From positions 1-48,775 of the forward strand of contig JAUYMI010000007.1 in assembly GCA_030698665.1 (NCBI GenBank): a stretch of DNA of 48,775 nt, written 5' to 3'. This DNA is from a bacterium (lineage in GTDB: Bacteria > Patescibacteriota > Minisyncoccia > Minisyncoccales > UBA10102). Both the position numbers and the translations under genes were made by a program. Under the pieces are notes generated by a model. The model did no database searches. It worked only from the letters and a program-made list of their open reading frames with translations, and had not been told where the DNA came from. Positions 10,365 through 32,007 of the stretch are shown in pieces (within the stretch, counting starts at the first letter, position 1; every line of letters begins with the position of its first letter).

Positions 10365-12041
10365 ATGGCTGAAATCAACTTTTTCGGATACACAACCTTT
10401 CGCAACCAGCGGAGGAAGTTTGGCATTAAGATTGATGACCGGAGAAGACACGTGTACGTGATGGGGAAGACCGGCATGGGCAAGACAGCTATGCTAGAGA
10501 ACATGGCCGAACAAGACATCACGGCCGGCCACGGTGTGGGCTTCATTGATCCGCACGGGGAAGCTGCAGAAAAGCTCTTGGACTACATTCCGGCTTCCCG
10601 CGTGGATGACGTCATCTATTTCAATCCTGCCGACATGGCGCATCCCATCGCCTTCAACGTCATGGAGCAGGTGGCTCCCGAGTACCGGCACCTGGTCGCT
10701 TCGGGTTTAATGTCGGTTTTCAAGAAGATTTGGCCTGACGTTTGGTCAGCTCGTATGGAGTACATTTTAAACAACGTGATCTTGGCGCTTTTAGAGTATC
10801 CGGGAGCCACACTCCTCGGGATCAACCGCATGCTGTCTGACCGCGCGTATCGAGAGGAGGTGATCAGTAAGCTCACGGACCCCATCATCAAGGCGTTCTG
10901 GGTGCAGGAGTACGCGAGGTACACGGAGCGCTATGAGGTGGAGGCGACGGCCGCCATTCAAAACAAAGTCGGTCAGTTCGTTTCAAACCCTCTCATACGA
11001 AACATCGTGGGGCAGACGAGATCCGCCATTAATATGAGGGAAATCATGGACGGGGAGAAGGTCCTCATAGCCAACATTTCCAAGGGCCGGGTCGGGGAGG
11101 ATAACTCGCGCCTCCTGGGAGCCCTGCTCATCACCAAGCTTCAGCTTGCGGCCATGTCGCGCGTGGACATTCCAGAGCAGGAGCGCAAGGACTTCTTTTT
11201 GTACATTGACGAGTTCCAGAACTTTGCCTCAGAGTCCTTCGTGAACATTCTTTCAGAAGCCAGAAAATACCGGCTGGATCTCATTTTGGGGCACCAGTAC
11301 ATCGCTCAGTTAGACGAGACAGTGCGGGATGCCGTATTCGGAAACGTGGGGACCATGGTTGCTTTCCGCGTGGGAGCCGAGGACGCAGAGTGGCTCGAGC
11401 GGGAGTTTTCTCCCGAGTTTACGGCTCAGGATTTGGTCAACCTTGGCAAGTACAACGTGTACTTGAAGCTCATGATTGACGGCCTGGCGGGAGCTCCCTT
11501 TTCAGCTGAGACCCTGCTTCCGCTTCCTGAGCCCGAAAACTCCCAGAAGGATCATATCATTCAGGCTTCAAGGCAGCGCTACGGCACCCCCCAGAGCGAG
11601 GTGGAGGAGGCGATTAGCGATTGGTCGCTCATGAGGGAAGCTACCTCAGCACAGCCGCCAAGGGCGGCTCCTCCTCGCCCGTCTTCTGTCGCTAGCGGGG
11701 AAACTTTGTATGACGCTATCTGTTCTTCGTGCGGCAAGCCCACGAAGGTGGTCTTTCCTCCCGACGGCAAGCGGCCCACGTACTGCAAGTCCTGCCGCAA
11801 GAAGCAAAAGCGCTCACAAGAACAGGTGAAGGGACCGGCTCAGCCAATGTCGCTGAAGGATGCCTTGGGCGCAAAGCCTGTCTTCTTCCATCCTTCAAAG
11901 GCGCAGGAGGCACGCGAGGGAAGCTCTGGAAATGCCGAACTCAGACAGGTACTACAAGAGTCCCTGAAGCAGACCTCGGAAAAGAGCAAAGAGAAGGGAG
12001 AGATTGTCCCCGGCCAGACTATACGCTTTGAGCATGAATGA
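10365..12041 (+). CDS. VirD4/TraD/TraG-like (type IV coupling-protein family) P-loop ATPase with a C-terminal zinc ribbon
   Basis: 558 aa. Walker A GKTGMGKT, Walker B FFLYIDEFQNF, then LGHQYIAQL..GNVGTMVAFRVG typical of the TraD/TraG C-terminal region. Tail CSSCGKPTKVVFPPDGKRPTYCKSCRKK. Confidence 0.8.
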   Translation: MAEINFFGYTTFRNQRRKFGIKIDDRRRHVYVMGKTGMGKTAMLENMAEQDITAGHGVGFIDPHGEAAEKLLDYIPASRVDDVIYFNPADMAHPIAFNVMEQVAPEYRHLVASGLMSVFKKIWPDVWSARMEYILNNVILALLEYPGATLLGINRMLSDRAYREEVISKLTDPIIKAFWVQEYARYTERYEVEATAAIQNKVGQFVSNPLIRNIVGQTRSAINMREIMDGEKVLIANISKGRVGEDNSRLLGALLITKLQLAAMSRVDIPEQERKDFFLYIDEFQNFASESFVNILSEARKYRLDLILGHQYIAQLDETVRDAVFGNVGTMVAFRVGAEDAEWLEREFSPEFTAQDLVNLGKYNVYLKLMIDGLAGAPFSAETLLPLPEPENSQKDHIIQASRQRYGTPQSEVEEAISDWSLMREATSAQPPRAAPPRPSSVASGETLYDAICSSCGKPTKVVFPPDGKRPTYCKSCRKKQKRSQEQVKGPAQPMSLKDALGAKPVFFHPSKAQEAREGSSGNAELRQVLQESLKQTSEKSKEKGEIVPGQTIRFEHE

Positions 12042-14709: not shown

Positions 14710-15102
14710 CGTCAAGCTGTATGGCAGTCGCTCTCGCGTTCTCAGAACGTGGGAGAGGAAGGTCCGAACACTACTTCCCGTCAGAAGAACGGGTCTAAAA
14801 GGGTAGCGGGTAACACCCGTCCGCAGTAATGCGAGAGGTGCGAGCAGAGACGCTGAGGCAAGCGATTGCCGAGGCCCTTGCCAGAGTGGCAAGGTGAGCT
14901 CCGGGAGTAATCCTGGAGGTGAAACGGCTAAATCCTTATCCGAGTGCAAGAGCAAGCCAGGGAATCAGCTTCCATGTTGAAGCCCTGTGAAAAGTAGCTC
15001 GCTGGAGCCTGAGGGTAACCTCAGGCCAAGACAGATGATTGCCGCTCTGTCCTCGCGAGGGGGCAGAGTACAGAATTCGGCCTATATTACAGCTTGGCCG
15101 GG
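14710..15102 (+). ncRNA. rnpB: RNase P RNA, bacterial type A
   Basis: P4 strands GAGAGGAAGGUCCGAAC (about 14753-14769) and ACAGAAUUCGGCCUAUA (15070-15086). P1 pairs AAGCUGU (14714-14720) with ACAGCUU (15089-15095). No credible ORF on this strand. Confidence 0.85.
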
Positions 15103-19149: not shown

Positions 19150-19220
19150 GCGGGTGTAACACAGTGGCAGTGTGCTTGCTTCCCAAGCAAGATACGCGAG
19201 TTCGATTCTCGTCACCCGCT
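19150..19220 (+). tRNA. tRNA-Gly (anticodon CCC)
   Basis: Hand-folded cloverleaf. Acceptor GCGGGTG/CACCCGC, D stem ACAC/GTGT, anticodon stem CTTGC/GCAAG with loop TTCCCAA, T arm GCGAG-TTCGATT-CTCGT. CCA is not encoded. Confidence 0.9.
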
Positions 19221-19230
19221 CAAGGAGCGC

Positions 19231-19304
19231 GCCGATGTAGCTTAGTGGTAAAGCAATGGTTTCGTAAACCATGGACGGCAGTTCGATTCTGCCCGTCGGC
19301 TCCA
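19231..19304 (+). tRNA. tRNA-Thr (anticodon CGU), CCA encoded
   Basis: Acceptor GCCGATG/CGTCGGC (one G-U pair), D stem GCTT/AAGC, anticodon stem ATGGT/ACCAT with loop TTCGTAA, T arm GGCAG-TTCGATT-CTGCC, then T-CCA. Confidence 0.9.
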
Positions 19305-19910: not shown

Positions 19911-19918
19911 GTTTGGTT

Positions 19919-19949
19919 TCTCGCTTCCAACAGAATATTGGAAGCGAGA
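19919..19949 (+). terminator. Perfect 11 bp stem hairpin (terminator or regulatory element)
   Basis: TCTCGCTTCCA (19919-19929), 9 nt loop, TGGAAGCGAGA (19939-19949). No downstream T tract. It sits 15 nt before ATG 19964. Confidence 0.4.
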
Positions 19950-19963
19950 GGCGAGATTTAAAT

Positions 19964-21466
19964 ATGAACGCTATGACGGAAAAATTTAAAATTTGGTATT
20001 TGTATATAACGGTTTTTGCGACTGGAGCGGCAATTTTAATCATTGAAATTTTAGGAACAAGAGTCATCTCTCCCTTCTACGGCACAACTATTTTTGTTTG
20101 GTCTTCGCTTATCATCGTTACGTTGAGCGCGCTTGCTTTGGGATATTGGTTAGGAGGGAAAATAGCGGATAGGCGGCCGGATGTTAGAATTTTTTATTCT
20201 CTTGTTTTAACGGCAGGCATCGCCACCTCGCTTATTATGAAAATAGATCAGCCGATACTTGTTTTTGCCGATCGGTTTGGATTTCAATTTGGTCCTCTGG
20301 TTGCGACATTTATTCTTTTTTCTGTTCCTCTGTTTTTACTTGGTGCATTGACTCCGTTTATTGTTCGTCTTCGGATGAAATTGCCTGAAAGGGCAGGCGA
20401 ATCGTCGGGCAATATTTTTGCCATTGCGACACTTGGATCGCTTGCTGGAGCTCTCTTGGCAGGGTTTGTTCTGATGCCGAGATTTTCTTTATCCGCCATT
20501 TTTTTCTTTATAGCAGGATTTCTTATAATAATCGCGTTCGCGGGTCTTCTCATGGAAAAGCAGTTTGCAAAAAATCCAACAAGAATCCTTTTTCTATTGC
20601 TCGCTTTCGGTTTTTTTGCGTTTCCGACACTGCGCTATGCGGAAGCAACGACAAATAATTTTGAGGTGCTTTACGCAGAACCAAATTTTAATAGCGACCT
20701 AAAAATAGTGAAGGTAGGCGAAAATATATGCATAGCTATGGACGGCGCGCTGCAGACGTGCAAATCAACGGGAAGTAATGGGCAGTTATTTTCCTATTTT
20801 GAGGAGTTGAAAAGCATCGTAAGCGAAAAAACGTACGGGGATATTCTTATTTTGGGCTCTGGAGGCGGCGCAATGCTGACGCTTTTTGCTCCAGATCAGC
20901 GTCTTGACGCGGTTGAAATAAACCCAAAGATGGTTGTTTTGGGAGAGCAGCGCCTTGGATTTAAAGCGGGACCAAATCAGAGTATCGTTATAGATGACGC
21001 GCGCAATTTTTTGCGAAAGACAGATAAAAAATATGATTTGGTTATCATGGACGTGTCTAAAGGATTTACTATTCCAAGCCATCTTTTTGCCAAAGAATAT
21101 TTTGAGATTTTAGCAAGTCATTTGAACCAGAACGGCGTTTTGGCAATAAACTTTTTTGGCCGCACAGAACCAGAAGACACGCTGACCGCGTCGGTAGTAA
21201 AAACCCTACAAACCATTTTTCCCAACACGGCTGTTGCGGCGCCGGATATTGGTTTGCAGAACTTGCTCATTTTTGCTTCATTTAGCGATTTGAGTCCAGT
21301 TGTTTCTTCACTGGCGACATACAGGGAAGCAAAACTAAACGCCAAAGACGGCATCGTATTCACGGATGACAAAAATCTTTCAGAAACACTGATTTTGCCC
21401 AATCTGGAAACCCTGCGGAACAGTTTAAAAGGCATCGGCGGTTTTAAACTTCTTTTTGCCAATTAA
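19964..21466 (+). CDS. Fused polytopic membrane domain / spermidine synthase-like SAM-dependent transferase
   Basis: ORF 19913..21466 with ATG at 19964. About 7 N-terminal TM helices, then ILILGSGGGAML..DAVEINPKMV..DDARNFL..YDLVIMDV (spermine/spermidine synthase fold). Confidence 0.8.
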   Translation: MNAMTEKFKIWYLYITVFATGAAILIIEILGTRVISPFYGTTIFVWSSLIIVTLSALALGYWLGGKIADRRPDVRIFYSLVLTAGIATSLIMKIDQPILVFADRFGFQFGPLVATFILFSVPLFLLGALTPFIVRLRMKLPERAGESSGNIFAIATLGSLAGALLAGFVLMPRFSLSAIFFFIAGFLIIIAFAGLLMEKQFAKNPTRILFLLLAFGFFAFPTLRYAEATTNNFEVLYAEPNFNSDLKIVKVGENICIAMDGALQTCKSTGSNGQLFSYFEELKSIVSEKTYGDILILGSGGGAMLTLFAPDQRLDAVEINPKMVVLGEQRLGFKAGPNQSIVIDDARNFLRKTDKKYDLVIMDVSKGFTIPSHLFAKEYFEILASHLNQNGVLAINFFGRTEPEDTLTASVVKTLQTIFPNTAVAAPDIGLQNLLIFASFSDLSPVVSSLATYREAKLNAKDGIVFTDDKNLSETLILPNLETLRNSLKGIGGFKLLFAN

Positions 21467-21471
21467 AGATT

Positions 21472-23151
21472 ATGCGTACAATTTGCAAAAAAAATATTAT
21501 CACCCTGCTTATTGCGGCAGCAGTATTTGGAGGAATGATTTTTTGGGCTAATCCTGTTTTTGCGGCGGGTACATTCACCACCAATCAAAGCCATTTTCAG
21601 TTTAAGGGCGACACCGGCGGAGAAACAGCTACGGACTGGCTTGCGGCTCAAGACGCTAATCTTAGTAGATTGACTAACAGTAATTTCCGTGTCCGCATCC
21701 ATTTTTATGAATCTGGCAATGTTACTGGTTCGGTAACCCCTCTTTTGGAATACAAACTAGCCTCTGGCAGCGCCTGTACCGATACAACAGGATGGACAAC
21801 CATTACTACCAGCACCACAAACGCGTTTGCCCTTGTTGATTCAGCTAATTTTACTGAACCGGTCGTAACCACCGAACAGTTATCAAGCCAGGGCGGCGTA
21901 ACGTTCACGGCCGGAGAACTTCTGGACCAAACCAACCCGGGTTCTTCTGTTGCCATCGGTCCAAAAAATGAAACTGAATACGTTTGGAATATTAAAGCGA
22001 CCGATAGCGCGTCTGCAACCGCTTACATTTTTCGGGTCAGCAATAACGGCACTAACTTAACAAATTATAATGTCTGCCCGCAGGTTACCGTTCTTGTTCC
22101 ACCTGATTTAACTTGGGCAACCGGCGCGGCTGATTTTGAAATTTTTACGTCCAGTTCGCTCACATGGGATGCCGGTGGTCCGGCAGTGTGTTCGGGAACT
22201 CTTACCGACACCAATGCCGATACAATTTCTTGCTCAAGCGGTTCTGTCGCCAACTCAACGCAATATAGGGTGCAGGCGGTTTTGAAGAATGTCGGTGGCA
22301 TAGCAAGGATGATAAGCACACCTGAATATGTTGACCATAAAAATGTCAAAGCCGGCTGGGCAGGAACCAATCCGACTTTAGGGACTTGCGGGTTTAACGA
22401 TTTTGGGTTGGACGATGATGTTAGTGTTGTTTGCATCCTCGCTTACGTTGGCAATGATGTTAGAATAACAAATGAACCTCCAATTACCCCTGACAATGTA
22501 CTAATTAGCACAGGTGAAACCGAGGGCTTTATGTATTTGATTACCACTGACAGCGATGTTCCGTCTTCTGACTCCACAAGCTATATGGACACTTCAATTG
22601 ATGATATAATACAAGATTCAAGCAAAATTACGATTACCGGCTCGGCCGCCGGGCCGACTCTTACTTTCAGTATCAGTGACAATGCAATCGGCTTTAGCAA
22701 CCTTGATAGCGCAAATGAAAGATGGGCTACTGGAAGCGGTTCTGGGAGCCCGACCGAAACCCCGGCCCACACTTTAACCGCCTCCACCAACGCCACAAAC
22801 GGATACACCATTACCGTAAACGGAACTACCCTTGCATCCACTGGCACGCCAAGCCATACCATCACTGCCATTGGGGCTTCTGCGGCTAACGTTACAACAG
22901 GAAATGGCACAGAGCAGTTTGGCATACGATTAACAGCTTCAGGGACTGGAACTCCCAGCTCTCCTTATAATGGGGCTACCAATATGTATGCCTTAGATAC
23001 TGCCGCCTTTCCTGATGCAATTGCTACGGGCGCTGGAGATGGCAGCTCCACAATCTATTCTGTTTTTTACGCGGCAAACATTGCCGCCACAACGGAAGCG
23101 CATACGGATTACACAGCTTCTCTCACCTATGTTGCCACGGGAAATTTCTAA
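21472..23151 (+). CDS. Secreted surface protein, paralog A; C-terminal module of about 164 aa shared with 23233..24342
   Basis: Signal peptide ..ANPVFA/AG; Thr/Ser/Asn-rich. The C-terminal module (from about 22657) aligns with the next gene, and the last 19 aa are identical (TEAHTDYTASLTYVATGNF). Confidence 0.75.
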   Translation: MRTICKKNIITLLIAAAVFGGMIFWANPVFAAGTFTTNQSHFQFKGDTGGETATDWLAAQDANLSRLTNSNFRVRIHFYESGNVTGSVTPLLEYKLASGSACTDTTGWTTITTSTTNAFALVDSANFTEPVVTTEQLSSQGGVTFTAGELLDQTNPGSSVAIGPKNETEYVWNIKATDSASATAYIFRVSNNGTNLTNYNVCPQVTVLVPPDLTWATGAADFEIFTSSSLTWDAGGPAVCSGTLTDTNADTISCSSGSVANSTQYRVQAVLKNVGGIARMISTPEYVDHKNVKAGWAGTNPTLGTCGFNDFGLDDDVSVVCILAYVGNDVRITNEPPITPDNVLISTGETEGFMYLITTDSDVPSSDSTSYMDTSIDDIIQDSSKITITGSAAGPTLTFSISDNAIGFSNLDSANERWATGSGSGSPTETPAHTLTASTNATNGYTITVNGTTLASTGTPSHTITAIGASAANVTTGNGTEQFGIRLTASGTGTPSSPYNGATNMYALDTAAFPDAIATGAGDGSSTIYSVFYAANIAATTEAHTDYTASLTYVATGNF

Positions 23152-23232
23152 GTTATCCACAGCACACTCGCTTGACTTGGTTTTTTGTACTATACTATTT
23201 TAAGATGTAAGTATTAAGCAGTATAAACAACA

Positions 23233-24342
23233 ATGAAAGGTATTCGTTTTGTAACCAGTGTCGGACTTATTTTCTCGCTTCTCTTGGCTTTGTTCGGTCC
23301 GCCTTTCCAGATTGCGCAGGCAGCCGCCTTAACTGGTATGTCTGCCACGTTGTCTACTTTAAAAATAAGCACGGTGGCGAACCAGACCATTCTGTTCACT
23401 CTGTCAGCTACAGGAGGAGGAATAGCCGCCGGTGAAACCATCACATTGACATATGATTCGGACTTTGCCATACCCGTAGCCCTGGACTTTGAAGATATTG
23501 ACGTGAGCACCGACGCTACTCCAGATGGCGTGTGCGATACCGGCGACACCGAATTAACTCTTGCCGCCGCTGCCTCTGGCACAACGTGGGGAGCGATAGA
23601 CACAAGCACCACGGTTATTACCATTACTTCGGGCACGGGCACCATTGCGGCCTCGGTTGAAGTATGCGTTGAGATTGGGACCAATGCTGAATCAGTGATT
23701 ACCGGTATAGAGCGGATAACCAATGCCACCACTGCCGCTTCTCGCAACCTTACTCTTGGAGGCACCAATGGCGACACGGGAACCATTGTCATTACCACGG
23801 TCACAGATGACGTAGTGGTGGCAACCGCAACGGTAGCAGCCAGCTTGAGTTTCTCCATTTCAGACAACGATATTTTCTTTGGCACTTTGAGTACCAGCGC
23901 GAGCAAGTGGGCAGACAACACGGCAGACGGAAATGCCACGGCAGCCGTAGCCCATACCCTTATTGCGGGAACCAACAGCACGAGCGGATACACCATAACC
24001 GTGCAAGGGGCCACGCTCACTTCTACTGGCACGCCGGGTGACACCATTACTGCCATGGGCACGGAAGCCGTGCTTGACCCCTCGGGAGACGTAGAGCAGT
24101 TTGGCTTGCGCATTACGGCTGCGGGAGGTTCCGGAGCGGTTGACACAAACTATGACAACACTCCCGCTGACACCTACTTTTATGGAGCAAACGCGACCAC
24201 AACAGACGTTATCGCCACATCAGCGGGCGTCTCCGCTGACACAACATACTCTTTGTATTACGCCGCCAACATTGCTTCCAGTACTGAAGCCCACACGGAC
24301 TACACAGCTTCCCTCACCTACGTTGCAACGGGGAACTTTTAG
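23233..24342 (+). CDS. Secreted surface protein, paralog B, same C-terminal module
   Basis: Signal peptide ..FQIAQA/AA. The module starts at about 23842 (SLSFSISDNDIFFG..GYTITVQG..EQFGLRITA..YYAANIA..TEAHTDYTASLTYVATGNF). Confidence 0.75.
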   Translation: MKGIRFVTSVGLIFSLLLALFGPPFQIAQAAALTGMSATLSTLKISTVANQTILFTLSATGGGIAAGETITLTYDSDFAIPVALDFEDIDVSTDATPDGVCDTGDTELTLAAAASGTTWGAIDTSTTVITITSGTGTIAASVEVCVEIGTNAESVITGIERITNATTAASRNLTLGGTNGDTGTIVITTVTDDVVVATATVAASLSFSISDNDIFFGTLSTSASKWADNTADGNATAAVAHTLIAGTNSTSGYTITVQGATLTSTGTPGDTITAMGTEAVLDPSGDVEQFGLRITAAGGSGAVDTNYDNTPADTYFYGANATTTDVIATSAGVSADTTYSLYYAANIASSTEAHTDYTASLTYVATGNF

Positions 24343-24361
24343 GGAGAATATATATAATCTC

Positions 24362-24390
24362 TTGTTCTCTCCGTGGTGGCGTGATAGCAT
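24362..24390 (+). promoter_or_regulatory. Candidate extended -10 promoter abutting ATG 24397
   Basis: TTGTTC (24362-24367), 17 nt spacer ending in TGa, TAGCAT (24385-24390), then 6 nt to the ATG. Same GTGATAGCAT 10-mer as upstream of secD. Confidence 0.4.
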
Positions 24391-24396
24391 AACACT

Positions 24397-25473
24397 ATGA
24401 AATTTTTTGCAACCGTAGGCCTTTTTCTGCTTGCCGCCGTCATTGTACTGCCCGGTACAGCAGAAGCTCTTACTCTCTCTCCCGTACGCGAGGAGATTAC
24501 AGCGGACCCTGGTGAAACGGTGCATGGGGAACTTTTACTGATTAATGAGCAGGAGGGAACTAAGACCTTTTATTCAACTTTCGGGAACTTTGAAGCTTCA
24601 GGCGAATCGGGAACCCCGAGCTTTGTGGAGGGAAGAGAGGGGCTCGCGACTTGGATTGAGGCCGTGTCCTCGGTTACTCTTTCGCAGAATGAACAATTAG
24701 AGGTTCCCTATACCATACGGATACCTAAAAATGCCGCTCCCGGAGGCCACTTTGCCGCCATTTTTTGGAGCACTGTTCCTCCCAGAAGTCAAAGTGAGGG
24801 CGTTTCCATTGGCGCTAAAGTTGGTTCTTTGATTTTGCTTCGTGTGTCAGGAGAAATTCCGGAAGGAGGCGGAGTGCTGGAGTTTACAACAAAGGGCAAG
24901 CAGGGCTTTTTTAGCTCTCTGCCTATTGCTTTGGAGTACCGCTTCCAGAACGGGGGCGGGGACCGCTTAAAGCCGGAGGGGACGATAAGGATTACGAACC
25001 TCATTGGTTTTACCTCGGCTACCTTTAACGCGAACCCGGACGACGGGAACATTTTGCCTCAGTCCGTGAGAAAGTTTGATGTTCTTTGGGAGAAGGGAAA
25101 GGACGAAACAAAAAAGCTCCAAGGCGAGGGAGAGAAAACAGGAGGATTTTTTGGGGGATTGAAACAAGAATGGAGCAATATTGCATTTGGCAGATACACG
25201 GCTCATCTTGACGTAGTATATGGAGCGGAAGGGGAACGGGCACAGGCAAGCACGAGCTTCTTTGTTGTTCCTTGGAGGATTTTGAGCATACTCATCGTTA
25301 TACTCGCCATTCTGTCCTTTCTGTTTTCCTTGGGAATTAAACGTTACAACAAGTGGGTGACGCAAAAGGCGATTTCCCAGTTTCAGATGATGAACGCGGG
25401 GCGTACCGCACCAAGCAAGGCAATATCTACTGTGGCTCAAGCTTCAAAAAAACGCAGGCTTAAAACTCTATAA
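24397..25473 (+). CDS. Signal-peptide Ig-fold protein with a C-terminal TM anchor (DUF916/DUF3324-like architecture)
   Basis: Signal peptide ..GTAEA/LT, beta-rich domains (PGETVHGELLLINE.., IPKNAAPGGHFAAIFW) and a C-terminal helix ILSILIVILAILSFLFSLGI with a basic tail. Confidence 0.7.
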   Translation: MKFFATVGLFLLAAVIVLPGTAEALTLSPVREEITADPGETVHGELLLINEQEGTKTFYSTFGNFEASGESGTPSFVEGREGLATWIEAVSSVTLSQNEQLEVPYTIRIPKNAAPGGHFAAIFWSTVPPRSQSEGVSIGAKVGSLILLRVSGEIPEGGGVLEFTTKGKQGFFSSLPIALEYRFQNGGGDRLKPEGTIRITNLIGFTSATFNANPDDGNILPQSVRKFDVLWEKGKDETKKLQGEGEKTGGFFGGLKQEWSNIAFGRYTAHLDVVYGAEGERAQASTSFFVVPWRILSILIVILAILSFLFSLGIKRYNKWVTQKAISQFQMMNAGRTAPSKAISTVAQASKKRRLKTL

Positions 25474-25481
25474 AGGAGCGA

Positions 25482-26528
25482 ATGAGCAAATGGATATTCT
25501 CAATTTTCATATTATCCTTTGCCAGCGGGTTTCCCTTCTTGATTTCCCAAGCGCAAGAAACGGTAGAGGTGACTCTTTCAGCCGCCGTTGAGGGTTGCGG
25601 AGACGAAGTTATTCAAAGCGGCGAAGCATGCGACGGCTCTAATTTGAACGGCAAAAGCTGTTCCACTCAAGGATTTTCTGCTGGAACTTTAAGTTGTAAC
25701 TCCAACTGCACTTTTAATACTTCGGCTTGCACTTCCGGCGGAGGTGGGGGTGGCGGAGGAGGAGGCGGTGGTGGCGGCGGATATGTCGCGCCAGTCACGA
25801 GCGCTGTTTTTTCCGGCCACGCGTATCCTAAAAGCACGGTAACGCTTCTGAAAGACGCGCAGATTGCCGCAACAACCATCGCCGGCGCGGATGCTATTTT
25901 TCAAGTCAGTGTTTCCGGCATTTCGGCTGGAAATTATATTTTCTCTGTCTACAGCGAAGATGACAAAGGTGTACGGTCTTCTCTTTTGACTTTTCCTATA
26001 AGCGTAACATCGGGCGCCACTACCAATGTGAGCGGCATTTTTATTGCGCCCACCATTGTGGTAGATAAAAGCGAAGTGAAACGGGGCGACAACATCGCAA
26101 TTTTTGGGCAAAGCACGCCAAATTCCGAGATTACGATAGCGGTAAATTCAGACGAGGAGTTTTTTGCGAAAACGCCCGCCGACAAGGATGGTGTATATCT
26201 GTATAACTTTGACACTTCGCCGCTTGCGACGGAGCAGCATTTTACTCGATCAAAAAGCGCGTACAGCGGCGGAATCAGTTCTTTTAGCAAGTCCATAAGT
26301 TTTCTCGTTGGCACAAAAAATATTGCGGCCGAATTTCCAAAGGCGGCCGCGGAAGGCGATTTGAACGGTGATGGCCGCGTTAACCTCATTGATTTTTCCA
26401 TCGCCGCGTATTGGTATAAAAGGCCGATTTCAGCAGAGTTTATGCAGAAAGAAGCCGAGCGCTTAAATGGCGATGGCAAGGTTGACTTGGTGGACTTTAG
26501 CATCATGGCCTTTTACTGGACCGGATAA
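25482..26528 (+). CDS. Secreted dockerin-domain protein with an N-terminal Cys-rich repeat and a poly-Gly linker
   Basis: AAGGAG upstream. Signal peptide; CGDEVIQSGEACDG..C..C..C Cys-rich repeat; 15 consecutive Gly. Two dockerin type I calcium loops: DLNGDGRVNLID (26358-26393) and LNGDGKVDLVD (26463-26495). Confidence 0.8.
   Translation: MSKWIFSIFILSFASGFPFLISQAQETVEVTLSAAVEGCGDEVIQSGEACDGSNLNGKSCSTQGFSAGTLSCNSNCTFNTSACTSGGGGGGGGGGGGGGGYVAPVTSAVFSGHAYPKSTVTLLKDAQIAATTIAGADAIFQVSVSGISAGNYIFSVYSEDDKGVRSSLLTFPISVTSGATTNVSGIFIAPTIVVDKSEVKRGDNIAIFGQSTPNSEITIAVNSDEEFFAKTPADKDGVYLYNFDTSPLATEQHFTRSKSAYSGGISSFSKSISFLVGTKNIAAEFPKAAAEGDLNGDGRVNLIDFSIAAYWYKRPISAEFMQKEAERLNGDGKVDLVDFSIMAFYWTG
25737..25781 (+). 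repeat. Low-complexity tract of 15 consecutive Gly codons
   Basis: ggc gga ggt ggg ggt ggc gga gga gga ggc ggt ggt ggc ggc gga. Mixed synonymous codons, so it is not a simple nucleotide repeat. Confidence 0.95.
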
Positions 26529-26529
26529 T

Positions 26530-27441
26530 ATGAAGAACCTTCTCTTGTCGCTGGGCGTTCTTTCCTTGCTCGGGTACGCAGAACCCGCGTTCGGAGCGGC
26601 TCTTGTTTTGCAATCCGAACGGATGGAAGTCGGGGTGGGGCAGGAGGTGAGTGTTCTCCTCATGCTTGATTCACAGGACGAGATTCTGAACGCGGTGGAA
26701 GGAGCGGTGGTCTTCCCCCAGGAGGTCCTGCAGTTTGTCTCCGCCCGGGATGGAGACTCCGTGGTGAACCTTTGGGTGGAAAGGCCCGCTCTTGCAGGAG
26801 ACACTGTTTTCTTCTCTGGCGTAATGCCCGGCGGTTTTTCCGGAGTGCTCAGCCCCTATTACAGGGGAGGGCGGCCAGGCAAGCTTTTTGAGATGACCTT
26901 TGTGGCAAAGGAAGAAGGAGAGGCAGTGTTGTTGCTTCAAGGGGCGCGGGCGCTGCTGCACGACGGGGAGGGCACTTTGGCAGACCTTGAGGCGCCGCCC
27001 CTGCGACTTTCGGTCGTTCAGGAAACGCCCGAGGAGGCGGTGGCAGCTCCGCAGGATGTTGTGGCGCCCGAACCCTTTACCCCTGTTATCTCGCAAGATG
27101 CCAATCTCTTTGACGGGAAATGGTTTGTGGTCTTCGTGACGCAGGACAAAGGAAGCGGCGTCGCGCGCTACGAGGTGGCAGAACGTAGGGGAGAGGCGAT
27201 ACAAAACTACGCTCGACTTTCCTGGCGCGAGGCCGAAAGCCCTTATCTGTTGCGCGACCAGGAGCTGAAAAGTACGGTGTACGTGAAGGTTGTCGATTGG
27301 GCCGGCAACGAACGGACTGCCATGGCGCAGGCTCTCAACCCGTTCCCGTGGTATGAGAAATACTTGGTTTGGATTATACTAATAGTAGTAATCCTCGTAT
27401 TCCTCTTATGGGGCTTCCTAGTGCGTTACAGGCCAAATTAA
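26530..27441 (+). CDS. Cohesin-domain protein with a C-terminal membrane anchor
   Basis: ORF 26467..27441; ATG at 26530 lies 1 nt after the upstream stop. Signal peptide ..AEPAFG/AA. Cohesin-like LVLQSERMEVGVGQEVSVLLMLDS..LNAVEGAVVFPQEVLQFVS. C-terminal helix YLVWIILIVVILVFLLWGFLV. Confidence 0.7.
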   Translation: MKNLLLSLGVLSLLGYAEPAFGAALVLQSERMEVGVGQEVSVLLMLDSQDEILNAVEGAVVFPQEVLQFVSARDGDSVVNLWVERPALAGDTVFFSGVMPGGFSGVLSPYYRGGRPGKLFEMTFVAKEEGEAVLLLQGARALLHDGEGTLADLEAPPLRLSVVQETPEEAVAAPQDVVAPEPFTPVISQDANLFDGKWFVVFVTQDKGSGVARYEVAERRGEAIQNYARLSWREAESPYLLRDQELKSTVYVKVVDWAGNERTAMAQALNPFPWYEKYLVWIILIVVILVFLLWGFLVRYRPN

Positions 27442-27446
27442 AAAGG

Positions 27447-29180
27447 ATGCGATTCCCCAAGCCAAAGCTCTTATTGCTTCTTGTCTGTTTTCTGTTTGCG
27501 CCCGGTCTTGTTTCAGCCGCCACTCTGTACGTTACTCCTTCCACGGGATCATTTACCGTAGGGGAAATCTTTTCTGTGCAGGTGTCTGCCTCAAGCGCGG
27601 ATCAAGCTATGAACGCCGCATCGGGAGTGATTTCATTTCCGAGCGATAAGTTAGAGGTAACTTCGCTTTCCAAAACCAGTTCCATTATTTCCTTGTGGGT
27701 GCAAGAACCTTCGTACTCAAATAATGCGGGAACCGTCACGTTTGAGGGGATTGTGCCCAATCCCGGGTTTACTGGTTCTGTCGGGCGACTGCTTTCAGTC
27801 ACTTTTCGGGTAAAAGCGGGCGGCGTTGCTTCCCTCGCCTTTGTCTCAGGCAGCGTTTTGGCAAATGACGGTTTGGGCACAAATATCTTAACTGGCCTCA
27901 GCGGGGCAGCATTTTCTCTTGGGAGTGTGGTCACTCCTTCACCAACTCCAACACCAGCGCCCCAGTCCTCCCGGGTTGGAGTTCCTTCAGCTCCGGTGGT
28001 GCGTTCTTCCACGCACCCTGACTCAGAAAAATGGTACGCAAGCAGCAATGCCGTGTTTTCCTGGGACGTGCCCTCTGATGTTGATGCGGTTCGTTTGCTT
28101 GTAGGGGAATCCGCCAGCAGCGTGCCGACCATCGTGTATGCGCCGCCTGTCAGCTCTCGGGACCTTTCTGACATCGCCCTGGCTGACGGCGTGTGGTACT
28201 TCCATGTTCAGCTGGGGAACGCCAGCGGGTACGGGGGCACCTCGCATTTCAGGTTCCAGATTGACAAGACAAAGCCCCAGTACTTTACCCTTGAGGAACA
28301 ATCAAGGGAGGACGCAACCTTTCCCAGGGTTTCCTTTGCCGTGGACGCCGCAGACCAAATCTCCGGCATTGACCACTACGAGTTCCAGATTGACGAGGGC
28401 GAAAGCGTGGCGTGGAGCGATCCGGGAAACCACATCTACGAGACGCTCGCCCTTCTTCCCGGTAAACACCTGGTGATTGCAAAGGCGGTGGATAAGGCGG
28501 GAAACTACCTTGTGGATTCTGTTACCGTTGAGATTGAAGCCATAGAGTCACCGGTGCTCACCTCCTACCCCAGTTTGGTAAAGACAGGAGAGGCGTTTTT
28601 GGTGAAGGGAACTACGTATCCTGGAGGTGAGGTTACCTTACTGTTCCAGAGGGATAAAGAAGACGCTGTGTCTGCCGCGGTGAGCGCGGACAAGGCAGGG
28701 AACTTTGAGATATTTCTTGAGGAAGGCCTGAAGGATTCTGGTAGCTACAAGATGTGGGCCTTTGTATCTGACGAGCGGGGAGCGGTGAGTTTGCCCACCC
28801 AAAAGCTTTCTCTCAAAGTTGAGCGTTCACCGCTCATTGAGCTAGGTTCTTGGGCAACCACCGTGCTCGCCGTGATGATTCCCATTGTTGCCCTTCTTCT
28901 CGTTCTTATGGGGCTGTTGTGGTATGGATTTCAGAAGTTCGTACTCTGGAAGAGAAGAATCAGAAAAGAGGTGAAGGAAGCAGACCAGGCCCTCCATAAG
29001 GCAATCGGCCTGCTCAAAAAAGACATGGCAAGCCAGATTAAGCTTTTGGAGAAGGCCAAAACAAAACGCCAGCTTACCAAAGAAGAGGAAAAGATAATTA
29101 GGCAACTCAAAAAAGATTTGGATGACACGGAGAAATTTGTGAAAAAGGAAATCAAGGATATTGAAAAGGAAGTAAAATAA
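27447..29180 (+). CDS. Large cohesin-domain surface protein with a C-terminal TM anchor and a K/E-rich coiled-coil tail
   Basis: ORF 27369..29180 with ATG at 27447. Signal peptide ..GLVSA/AT. LYVTPSTGSFTVGEIFSVQVSASS..ASGVISFPSDKLEVTSL.. is a typical cohesin N-terminus. Ig-like repeats, TM helix VLAVMIPIVALLLVLMGLLWYGF, then KEVKEADQALHKAIGLLKKD... Confidence 0.75.
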   Translation: MRFPKPKLLLLLVCFLFAPGLVSAATLYVTPSTGSFTVGEIFSVQVSASSADQAMNAASGVISFPSDKLEVTSLSKTSSIISLWVQEPSYSNNAGTVTFEGIVPNPGFTGSVGRLLSVTFRVKAGGVASLAFVSGSVLANDGLGTNILTGLSGAAFSLGSVVTPSPTPTPAPQSSRVGVPSAPVVRSSTHPDSEKWYASSNAVFSWDVPSDVDAVRLLVGESASSVPTIVYAPPVSSRDLSDIALADGVWYFHVQLGNASGYGGTSHFRFQIDKTKPQYFTLEEQSREDATFPRVSFAVDAADQISGIDHYEFQIDEGESVAWSDPGNHIYETLALLPGKHLVIAKAVDKAGNYLVDSVTVEIEAIESPVLTSYPSLVKTGEAFLVKGTTYPGGEVTLLFQRDKEDAVSAAVSADKAGNFEIFLEEGLKDSGSYKMWAFVSDERGAVSLPTQKLSLKVERSPLIELGSWATTVLAVMIPIVALLLVLMGLLWYGFQKFVLWKRRIRKEVKEADQALHKAIGLLKKDMASQIKLLEKAKTKRQLTKEEEKIIRQLKKDLDDTEKFVKKEIKDIEKEVK

Positions 29181-31936: not shown

Positions 31937-32007
31937 TGCCGGGTCGTCTAGTGGTAGGACCCATGGTTCTGGACCATGGTACCTAGGTTCGAATCCTAGC
32001 CCGGCAG
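31937..32007 (+). tRNA. tRNA-Gln (anticodon CUG)
   Basis: Acceptor TGCCGGG/CCCGGCA (U1-A72), D stem GTCT/GGAC, anticodon stem CATGG/CCATG with loop TTCTGGA, T arm CTAGG-TTCGAAT-CCTAG, discriminator G. Confidence 0.9.

Follow-up and report, generated by a model that had tools for sequence, protein, structure and literature searches.

Two described surface systems come closest to the locus considered here, a six-gene unit at positions 21472-29180 of contig JAUYMI010000007.1 (assembly GCA_030698665.1), whose 48,775 nucleotides are called the window below. The Pam pilus of Candidatus Mycosynbacter amalyticus is made of the pilins PamA (55 kDa) and PamB (39 kDa), and its filament has been studied by cryo-electron microscopy (cryo-EM); in these pilins, a linker strand joins an N-terminal domain to a truncated Ig-like C-terminal domain (CTD) and fills the open CTD of a neighbouring subunit, and the operon encodes the FimC/PapD-like chaperones PamC and PamD, each with a C-terminal transmembrane (TM) helix, and no usher (bioRxiv 10.64898/2026.03.03.709456). 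The WxL clusters of Bacilli combine a small WxL protein, a large WxL protein and a WxLIP protein consisting of DUF916 and DUF3324 domains (PMC9772566, PMC10599100). The window comes from a bacterium of the Candidate Phyla Radiation (CPR; Patescibacteria), probably of the Parcubacteria/Paceibacteria lineage, and its locus can be held with good confidence to be an usher-less Pam-type pilus operon that builds a thin surface fibre by donor-strand exchange.

CPR bacteria presumably live in attachment to other microbes, and very little is known of the organelles that they use for it. The first report of the Pam pilus dates only from 2026 and concerns a single cultured species of Saccharimonadia, and the related module described here is widespread in other CPR lineages, including Nomurabacteria, Magasanikbacteria, Doudnabacteria, Peregrinibacteria and their relatives. 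At its core are one chaperone, one pilin that polymerises and a large protein of high variability, which is probably a host-recognition tip.

The first three genes, whose open reading frames (ORFs) had been placed on the plus strand by a first-pass annotation made from the letters alone, were confirmed at the same coordinates and lengths (559, 369 and 358 aa). Signal peptides of the locus proteins were inferred from their sequences. The parts of the three genes are as follows.

21472..23151, + strand: gene 1, 559-aa secreted protein; signal peptide aa 1-31 (by eye), lineage-variable N-terminal region aa 32-393
22651-23148, + strand: Pam-type CTD of gene 1, aa 394-559
23233..24342, + strand: gene 2, 369-aa pilin; signal peptide aa 1-30, N-terminal beta-sandwich domain aa 31-188
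23797-23841, + strand: conserved linker of gene 2, aa 189-203, candidate donor strand, DDVVVATATVAA
23842-24339, + strand: Pam-type CTD of gene 2, aa 204-369
24397..25473, + strand: gene 3, putative chaperone of 358 aa, WxLIP-like (PamC/D-like) and anchored in the membrane; signal peptide aa 1-24, DUF916-equivalent domain 1 aa 25-165, DUF3324-equivalent domain 2 aa 177-290
24772-24819, + strand: loop in domain 1 of gene 3, aa 126-141, containing VSIGAKVG; conserved, low-confidence, candidate complementing strand
25273-25344, + strand: TM helix of gene 3, aa ~293-316, followed by a basic tail

The shared C-terminal domain and the pilin subunits

Comparison of genes 1 and 2 by BLASTP returned a single significant alignment, with 90 identities over 168 positions (54%, E=4e-42), limited to residues 396-559 of the 559-aa protein and 204-369 of the 369-aa protein and reaching the last residue of both. 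A hidden Markov model (HMM) of the CTD matched exactly two of the 504 six-frame ORFs of the window, genes 1 and 2 (E=3.8e-52 for gene 1), and an HMM of the N-terminal domain of the 369-aa family had the 369-aa ORF as its sole window match, so the N-terminal regions of the two proteins are considered unrelated. These results agree with the first-pass annotation, which had described two secreted proteins with unrelated N-terminal regions and a common C-terminal module roughly half identical. The motifs it had quoted, FSISDN, GYTITV, EQFG and YAANIA..TEAHTDYTASLTYVATGNF, are all present and form the best-conserved stretches of the CTD family.

The kinship of this module became apparent with the NCBIfam models for the Pam system, NF058581 and NF058579, the first of which, CPR_Pam_pilin_C ("Pam pilus system pilin subunit"), derives from the Pam study (bioRxiv 10.64898/2026.03.03.709456). 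Both CTDs match NF058581 over nearly its whole length of 148 positions, gene 1 at E=2.5e-14 (53.6 bits, positions 7-148) and gene 2 at E=3.9e-13 (49.7 bits, positions 10-148). Several relatives score above the cut-off of the model, including the pilin orthologue in a Nomurabacteria genome (81.2 bits), a 1055-aa protein on a marine-sediment CPR contig (59.2 bits) and short CTD proteins at 70-93 bits, one of them at 92.7. By sequence similarity, the shared module is assigned to the CPR Pam pilin CTD family, and by homology to PamA and PamB the CTD would have an incomplete (truncated) Ig-like fold with an open groove. Polymerisation by donor-strand exchange is likely because the module matches the CTD of CPR Pam pilins. 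A Pfam scan of genes 1-3 gave nothing at E<=1, including WxL, DUF916, DUF3324 and SCPU, and sequence searches of the PDB with single proteins of the locus returned nothing meaningful.

The CTD family is large, and the module goes far beyond chance. At E<=1e-3 its profile retrieved 1597 representative clusters (defined at 50% identity), of which 301 remained at E<=1e-30, and the host proteins range from 156 to 3431 aa. In all 150 matches listed from this search the domain reached the C-terminus or stopped a few residues short of it, and 262 of 265 located copies ran to the very last residue. The top 150 matches were close relatives only, and no bridging sequences came out of the representative-cluster search. 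Named homologues of the window proteins were all from CPR bacteria, namely Nomura-, Nealson-, Kaiser-, Doudna-, Magasanik- and Peregrinibacteria and 'Paceibacterota'.

The 30 residues upstream of the CTD were aligned for the 265 proteins in which the domain had been located. In the mid-size class (~340-400 aa, n=173), to which the 369-aa protein belongs, the segment GDTGxIxVxIxxDDqVaVTATVxqSLTFSISDN is conserved, and the motif DDqVaVTATV within it marks a linker directly before the CTD; in the window pilin it reads DDVVVATATVA and lies between the N-terminal domain and the CTD. An AlphaFold2 model of the 369-aa pilin (predicted local distance difference test, pLDDT, 92.4) contains two beta domains and leaves the linker (residues 189-204) unpaired, in keeping with pairing in trans. 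Shorter proteins of 191 and 197 aa at another locus (L076) consist of signal peptide, linker motif and CTD only. Because linker and CTD are kept together in both mid-size and minimal short proteins, the conserved core can be described as a donor strand plus an acceptor domain. The build of Pam pilins, with N-terminal beta-sandwich, linker strand and CTD, fits the 369-aa protein, which is likely the polymerising pilin, and does not fit the 559-aa protein.

The minimal pilins occur in tandem on a groundwater CPR scaffold (L076:9001-10396), where they lack an N-terminal domain, have linkers reading QDVNISATVAQ and QNVSITATVDQ, and are followed by a chaperone gene of the gene 3 family and by a gene for a protein of more than 2700 aa.

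Large CTD proteins look different. In the class above 400 aa (n=74, including the 559-aa protein), there is zero conservation upstream of SLTFSISDN, and neither the 559-aa protein nor the other 73 have a conserved linker before the CTD; proteins of this class appear to be acceptor-only. Just one of the 73 others contains the N-terminal domain of the 559-aa protein, and the large CTD protein encoded upstream of the pilin spans 559-2540 aa across loci. Because it has the CTD groove, lacks the linker and carries a lineage-variable N-terminal region, the 559-aa protein is probably an acceptor-only distal tip adhesin, by analogy with FimH and PapG. It would not be the equivalent of PamA, since it has no linker and no N-terminal domain in common with the smaller pilin. 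The single recurrence concerns its first N-terminal domain (aa 37-217, window 21565-22120), which is found again in a 1283-aa protein (P0269), there directly before the CTD; this sequence match suggests domain shuffling among tip proteins.

Gene 3 and the WxLIP proteins of Firmicutes

The AlphaFold2 model of gene 3, built with 73 homologues (pLDDT 86.9), contains a signal helix, two beta-sandwich domains and a C-terminal helix (293-336), in line with its original description as an Ig-fold protein with a signal peptide and one C-terminal TM segment. That description had also likened it to the DUF916/DUF3324 proteins, and five lines of evidence now bear this out. Pfam PF06030 (WxLIP_PGBD, formerly DUF916) has weak matches in 55 of 73 gene 3 relatives (best E=2e-4), gene 3 itself having no Pfam match at E<=1, and one relative is labelled 'DUF916 domain-containing' in UniRef. 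For comparison, 68 Firmicutes WxL loci were gathered by scanning genomes for the WxLIP motif NQIDKxxxYFDLK. Their WxLIP genes are genuine (PF06030 at 1e-39, PF11797 at 4e-51), as are their small WxL genes, which served as a positive control for PF13731 (1e-42 to 1e-66, 145-223 bits). Profile-profile alignment of the gene 3 family with some 60 of these Firmicutes WxLIP proteins (hhalign) gave 96.8% probability and E=2.5e-10 over 210 columns covering both domains, with a score of 80.7 against 12-23 in decoy comparisons.

Structural comparison points the same way. The top PDB match of the gene 3 model in Foldseek is Enterococcus faecium WxLIP (9i1y_A, E=1.7e-11, target TM-score 0.52), and the 'WxLIP bound to long WxL' complex (9i25_C) is matched at E=2.8e-10; further matches are RbmA and the chaperone-usher chaperones CfaA and CsuC, the latter two at ~1e-8. 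The gene 3 family profile searched against PDB sequences also had EfmWxLIP1 at the top, a match not significant alone (E=0.16). A paralogue in a Doudnabacteria locus (L075) matches the gene 3 family HMM at 3.5e-41 and passes the gathering threshold of PF06030 (47.4 versus 27.3 bits, E=2.4e-12). Because it passes the Pfam WxLIP_PGBD model outright, this 319-aa protein bridges the CPR and Firmicutes families. Gene 3 is a true remote homologue of Firmicutes WxLIP (DUF916+DUF3324). A gene of this type lies directly downstream of the pilin gene in all seven CPR loci examined. In gene 3, the conserved loop at aa 126-141 of the DUF916-equivalent domain is a candidate for a strand that fills the pilin groove.

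The paralogue belongs to a second pilin-chaperone pair adjoining the first in Candidatus Doudnabacteria (L075:11202-13245, JAWKSI010000002.1). This pair consists of a divergent 'type-2' Pam-type pilin of 368 aa and, directly downstream, the 319-aa chaperone paralogue. The CTD of the type-2 pilin is related to the window-type CTD at 98.8% probability in hhalign.

Whether the CTD itself is a WxL domain is a separate question. Neither the window proteins nor 74 relatives match Pfam WxL (PF13731) or SCPU, contrary to what the first-pass annotation had led one to expect of the shared module. Five CTD alignments (derived from an initial alignment, A2; an A3 set; 144 diverse representatives; the type-2 Doudnabacteria pilins; and a merged set) were compared by hhalign with small, large and pooled WxL profiles and gave P=0.006-0.085 and probabilities of at most 6%. 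The CTD-WxL score exceeded all column-shuffled controls (none of 150 reached it; z~5), and unrelated beta-sandwich decoys scored alike, at 23.1 for the CTD against the pilin N-terminal domain and 23.0 for WxL against the gene 3 family. Because these decoy alignments score equally well, sequence homology between CTD and WxL is not claimed. When the CTD HMM was run against 968 Firmicutes ORFs with hmmsearch, WxL and WxLIP proteins ranked together, at E>0.01, an uninformative ranking.

What does agree is the geometry. The best local hhalign matches are collinear, pairing GYTITV with GWxLxV, YTxSLTY with YxTxLTW, and SLTFSIS..IGFG with LSID..S..FG. The CTD motifs are Tyr-x-Ile and Tyr-x-Ala, the first aromatic residue being Y in 142 of 151 CPR CTDs and W in one; they lie 100 residues apart (interquartile range, IQR, 98-102), with the second 7 residues before the C-terminus. 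In 53 small WxL proteins, the spacing is 101 (IQR 100-106), and the second motif stands 9 residues before the C-terminus. The proposal that GYTITV and LTYVA occupy the places of the two W-x-L motifs is thus favoured by spacing, and it is weakened by the exchange of Trp for Tyr and by the lack of profile similarity above decoys. A relation of the CTD to WxL is plausible but unproven, the case for it being circumstantial (motif geometry and cluster architecture).

In the Firmicutes small WxL proteins (loci L005-L072, for example L005:6308-7165 and L007:6480-7292, both on the minus strand), a conserved N-terminal segment, Y-x-S-N-G-x-[VI]-x-F-x-P-N, is followed by a proline-rich linker and then the beta-sandwich. 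The segment resembles the donor-strand extension of chaperone-usher pilins, and WxL proteins could oligomerise through it.

Likeness between the CPR locus and the WxL clusters extends to the whole arrangement. Gene 3 has the signal-peptide, two-Ig and TM build of WxLIP and is homologous over both domains; a large protein with a variable N-terminus accompanies a smaller one with a common, always C-terminal module; and in both systems the partner protein is predicted to donate a strand that completes a beta-sandwich, so that WxLIP strand donation would be donor-strand complementation in all but name. The clusters differ in that the window module has no Pfam WxL match, has Tyr in place of both Trp residues and is not similar above decoys, that the mid-size protein has an additional N-terminal domain and a conserved donor-type linker, that the window cluster contains no LPxTG protein, and that WxL proteins are described as peptidoglycan binders rather than filament subunits.

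These comparisons lead to a tentative proposal, regarded as slightly less probable than its contrary, that WxL clusters and Pam-type loci represent two lines of a single ancient system in monoderm bacteria that has no usher and in which a chaperone anchored in the membrane carries out donor-strand complementation. WxLIP would be the counterpart of the Pam-type chaperone, and the WxL domain that of the Pam CTD, with Trp instead of Tyr. The chaperone half of this proposal has been demonstrated, and the subunit half is backed only by architecture and the geometry of the motifs. WxL and DUF916 go unmentioned in the Pam preprint, and no paper linking WxL, DUF916 or WxLIP with CPR bacteria or donor-strand assembly was found in the literature searched, so the connection between Pam and WxLIP is apparently new. 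Homology to WxLIP ties a locus associated with virulence and colonisation in culturable Firmicutes (Enterococcus, Listeria, Lactobacillus) to a filament system of unculturable bacteria. Testable predictions follow for either side, namely that WxLIP may serve as a chaperone of assembly and that WxL proteins may be subunits of the donor-strand type. Were the two systems one, WxL proteins would be handled, and possibly polymerised, by donor-strand complementation and exchange, beyond sticking to peptidoglycan, and CPR pili would gain a tractable relative in Enterococcus, Listeria and Lactobacillus.

Conserved gene order, proposed assembly and alternative explanations

Co-occurrence of the three genes in related genomes, proposed earlier as a check, was found in four CPR lineages. 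The order of large CTD protein, pilin and WxLIP-like gene is kept in a marine-sediment CPR contig (L001), a complete Nomurabacteria genome (L003/L004), a Peregrinibacteria locus (L073) and a Magasanikbacteria locus (L074), and flanking genes differ among these syntenic loci. The Doudnabacteria locus (L075) keeps the pilin-chaperone pair, with no large CTD protein upstream and without the genes described next. Three further genes follow the pilin and chaperone genes in the four lineages as in the window.

25482..26528, + strand: gene 4, secreted protein of 348 aa; contains a run of Gly residues, an Ig domain like Big_6 and, at the C-terminus, a dockerin
26467..27441, + strand: gene 5, ORF of 324 aa, secreted, with a C-terminal TM anchor; paralogue of gene 6
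27369..29180, + strand: gene 6, ORF of 603 aa, with an N-terminal domain as in gene 5, followed by OmpL47-type and Big_13 domains (Ig-like), a TM helix and a coiled-coil tail in the cytoplasm

As listed, genes 5 and 6 begin inside the gene before them, and the true starts are probably the Met codons near 26545 and 27447, respectively. Gene 4 matches Pfam Dockerin_1 at 26.8 bits (cut-off 22.9) and Big_6 at E=5.6e-6, and it is found at the same position in all four lineages. For gene 5, an HMM of alignment A4 matches the corresponding genes of the Peregrinibacteria and Magasanikbacteria loci, and gene 6 is kept in the marine-sediment, Nomurabacteria and Magasanikbacteria loci. No cohesin was confirmed in genes 5 and 6 by Pfam or by PDB profile search. 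Because genes 4-6 travel along in four lineages, the conserved unit comprises six genes (21472-29180), beyond the three originally recognised.

A working model of assembly can be drawn largely by analogy with the Pam pilus. All products would be exported by Sec. The membrane-anchored gene 3 chaperone would cap the open CTD groove of fresh subunits with a strand of its own, for which aa 126-141 are the candidate. The 559-aa acceptor-only protein would start the fibre, with its variable N-terminal region facing outward, and 369-aa pilins would then join at the base, the linker of each entering the CTD groove of the preceding subunit by donor-strand exchange. Speculatively, the fibre might be tethered through its chaperone-capped proximal subunit or through the products of genes 4-6.

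Set beside the Pam system, the locus agrees in the family of its CTD (E~1e-14, with relatives that pass the cut-off), in a pilin of two domains joined by a linker strand, and in a gene 3 product whose two Ig-like domains and C-terminal TM helix place it with PamC and PamD by architecture; signal peptides on all components, the absence of an usher and a CPR host are further points in common. It differs in its three extra conserved genes (the dockerin protein and the two TM paralogues), in having no ATP-synthase neighbourhood among the window ORFs scanned, and in relatives of Parcubacteria type, compared with the Saccharimonadia and Microgenomatia stressed in the Pam study (bioRxiv 10.64898/2026.03.03.709456). 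The window contains no short CTD-only protein, and genes 5 and 6 show no detected similarity to the CTD or gene 3. The locus is regarded as a variant of the known Pam system from another CPR lineage, with a single chaperone, no PamT, PamE or PamR, a hypervariable tip protein and three extra genes.

Several observations weigh against this assignment. Both window CTDs fall just under the curated cut-off of NF058581 (53.6 and 49.7 versus 55 bits, a shortfall of 1-5 bits). Only one chaperone is present, compared with two in the Pam operon, and no equivalent of PamT, PamE or PamR was detected in the window. For gene 3, NCBIfam yields nothing at E<=1 besides a chance match to a small-protein model. 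In a Foldseek search with the complete model of the pilin, the 50 matches listed were generic two-Ig adhesins and integrins at low TM-scores, with no Pam structure among them. The role of tip adhesin is drawn solely from missing linker conservation. No filament has been observed for the window subfamily.

An improbable alternative is that the module is a divergent WxL domain held non-covalently at the wall, with gene 3 as a stabilising WxLIP and no polymer formed. The homology of gene 3 to WxLIP fits such static display, as do the cluster architecture of a large and a smaller protein with a common module plus a WxLIP (PMC9772566, PMC10599100), the motif spacing of small WxL proteins (~100 aa, with the second motif 7-9 residues from the C-terminus) and the best local matches at GYTITV/GWxLxV and LTY/LTW. 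Yet Pfam WxL is unmatched in the window proteins and their 74 relatives, the hhalign scores are those of decoy beta-sandwiches, the module matches instead the Pam pilin CTD, which has been seen in filaments by cryo-EM, and the linker is conserved only in the non-adhesin class, as expected of a polymer. Of the WxL-like locus originally envisaged, gene 3 and the cluster layout stand and the WxL identity of the module does not; the likely mechanism comes nearer to the Csu-like pilin that the first-pass annotation had named as its alternative than to static non-covalent display, even though Pfam SCPU is unmatched. Taken literally, as an archaic chaperone-usher (Csu/spore-coat-U-like) pilus with SCPU-type pilins, a periplasmic chaperone and an outer-membrane usher, that alternative is extremely improbable. 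It has the donor-strand principle and the Foldseek matches of gene 3 to CsuC and CfaA (~1e-8) in its favour; opposed to these, no SCPU, fimbrial, usher or PapD family matched at E<=1 in Pfam searches of the six module genes and the upstream gene, or of 74 pilin and 73 chaperone relatives, the syntenic loci examined contain no usher-like or additional large conserved gene, the chaperone is TM-anchored, and an internal linker, not an extension at the N-terminus, serves as donor strand. CPR bacteria are not known to have an outer membrane, which also counts against it. With no usher or SCPU match, a TM-anchored chaperone and an internal donor strand, the Csu/SCPU pilus is considered effectively refuted.

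A cohesin-dockerin surface complex, in which genes 5 and 6 bind the dockerin of gene 4 and the CTD proteins are cargo on a scaffold with no pilus, is very unlikely. The dockerin does score above its Pfam cut-off, genes 5 and 6 are TM-anchored paralogues with a common N-terminal domain, and genes 4-6 accompany pilin and chaperone genes in four lineages; however, cohesin was found by neither Pfam nor PDB profile search, Doudnabacteria L075 has pilin-chaperone pairs without genes 4-6, and the CTD, the linker and the WxLIP-like features would be left unexplained. A sortase-dependent Gram-positive pilus was also considered and rejected. The two CTD proteins end in ...LTYVATGNF, with no LPxTG motif, hydrophobic stretch or basic tail at their C-termini, and no sortase was matched by Pfam among 17 window ORFs scanned.

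The Pam-type pilus favoured here remains comparable in principle with the chaperone-usher pili (Fim/Pap, CFA/I and archaic Csu), with which it would share donor-strand complementation followed by exchange (as proposed here), a two-Ig chaperone, and a tip adhesin that has a pilin domain and no donor strand. The window system differs in lacking an usher and an outer membrane, in its membrane-anchored chaperone, in an internal linker as donor strand, and in the absence of Pfam fimbrial, SCPU or PapD matches. The Vibrio cholerae protein RbmA resembles gene 3 in its tandem FnIII/Ig-like two-domain fold (Foldseek E~3e-11), with TM-scores of 0.23-0.36; it is a soluble matrix protein with no TM anchor or pilin partner, and the resemblance is one of fold only.

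Surroundings of the locus

Promoter and terminator scans gave no signal above shuffled expectation. Immediately upstream, a 517-aa membrane protein with a spermidine-synthase-like domain (19913-21466) stops 5 nt before the first pilus gene, and a gene of this kind is not kept at that position in other loci. On the minus strand, a 310-aa ORF (23214-24146) lies antisense to the pilin gene, and antisense ORFs of similar length recur throughout the region; most likely these are not genes and arise from the Thr/Ser/Ala/Gly-rich composition of the coding strand.

Farther away, a 558-aa protein encoded at 10365-12041 (+ strand) has domains of type IV secretion coupling proteins, with TrwB_AAD_bind at E=2.7e-11, TraG-D_C and a treble-clef zinc finger, and it may be part of the conjugation-like type IV secretion system reported for Patescibacteria. 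The rest of the window is ordinary CPR housekeeping, including SecA, SecDF, MurJ and LepA, together with genes for three tRNAs and for an RNase P RNA of the bacterial class A type (116 bits); these RNA genes lie at 14713-15100, 19150-19301 and 31937-32007 on the + strand.

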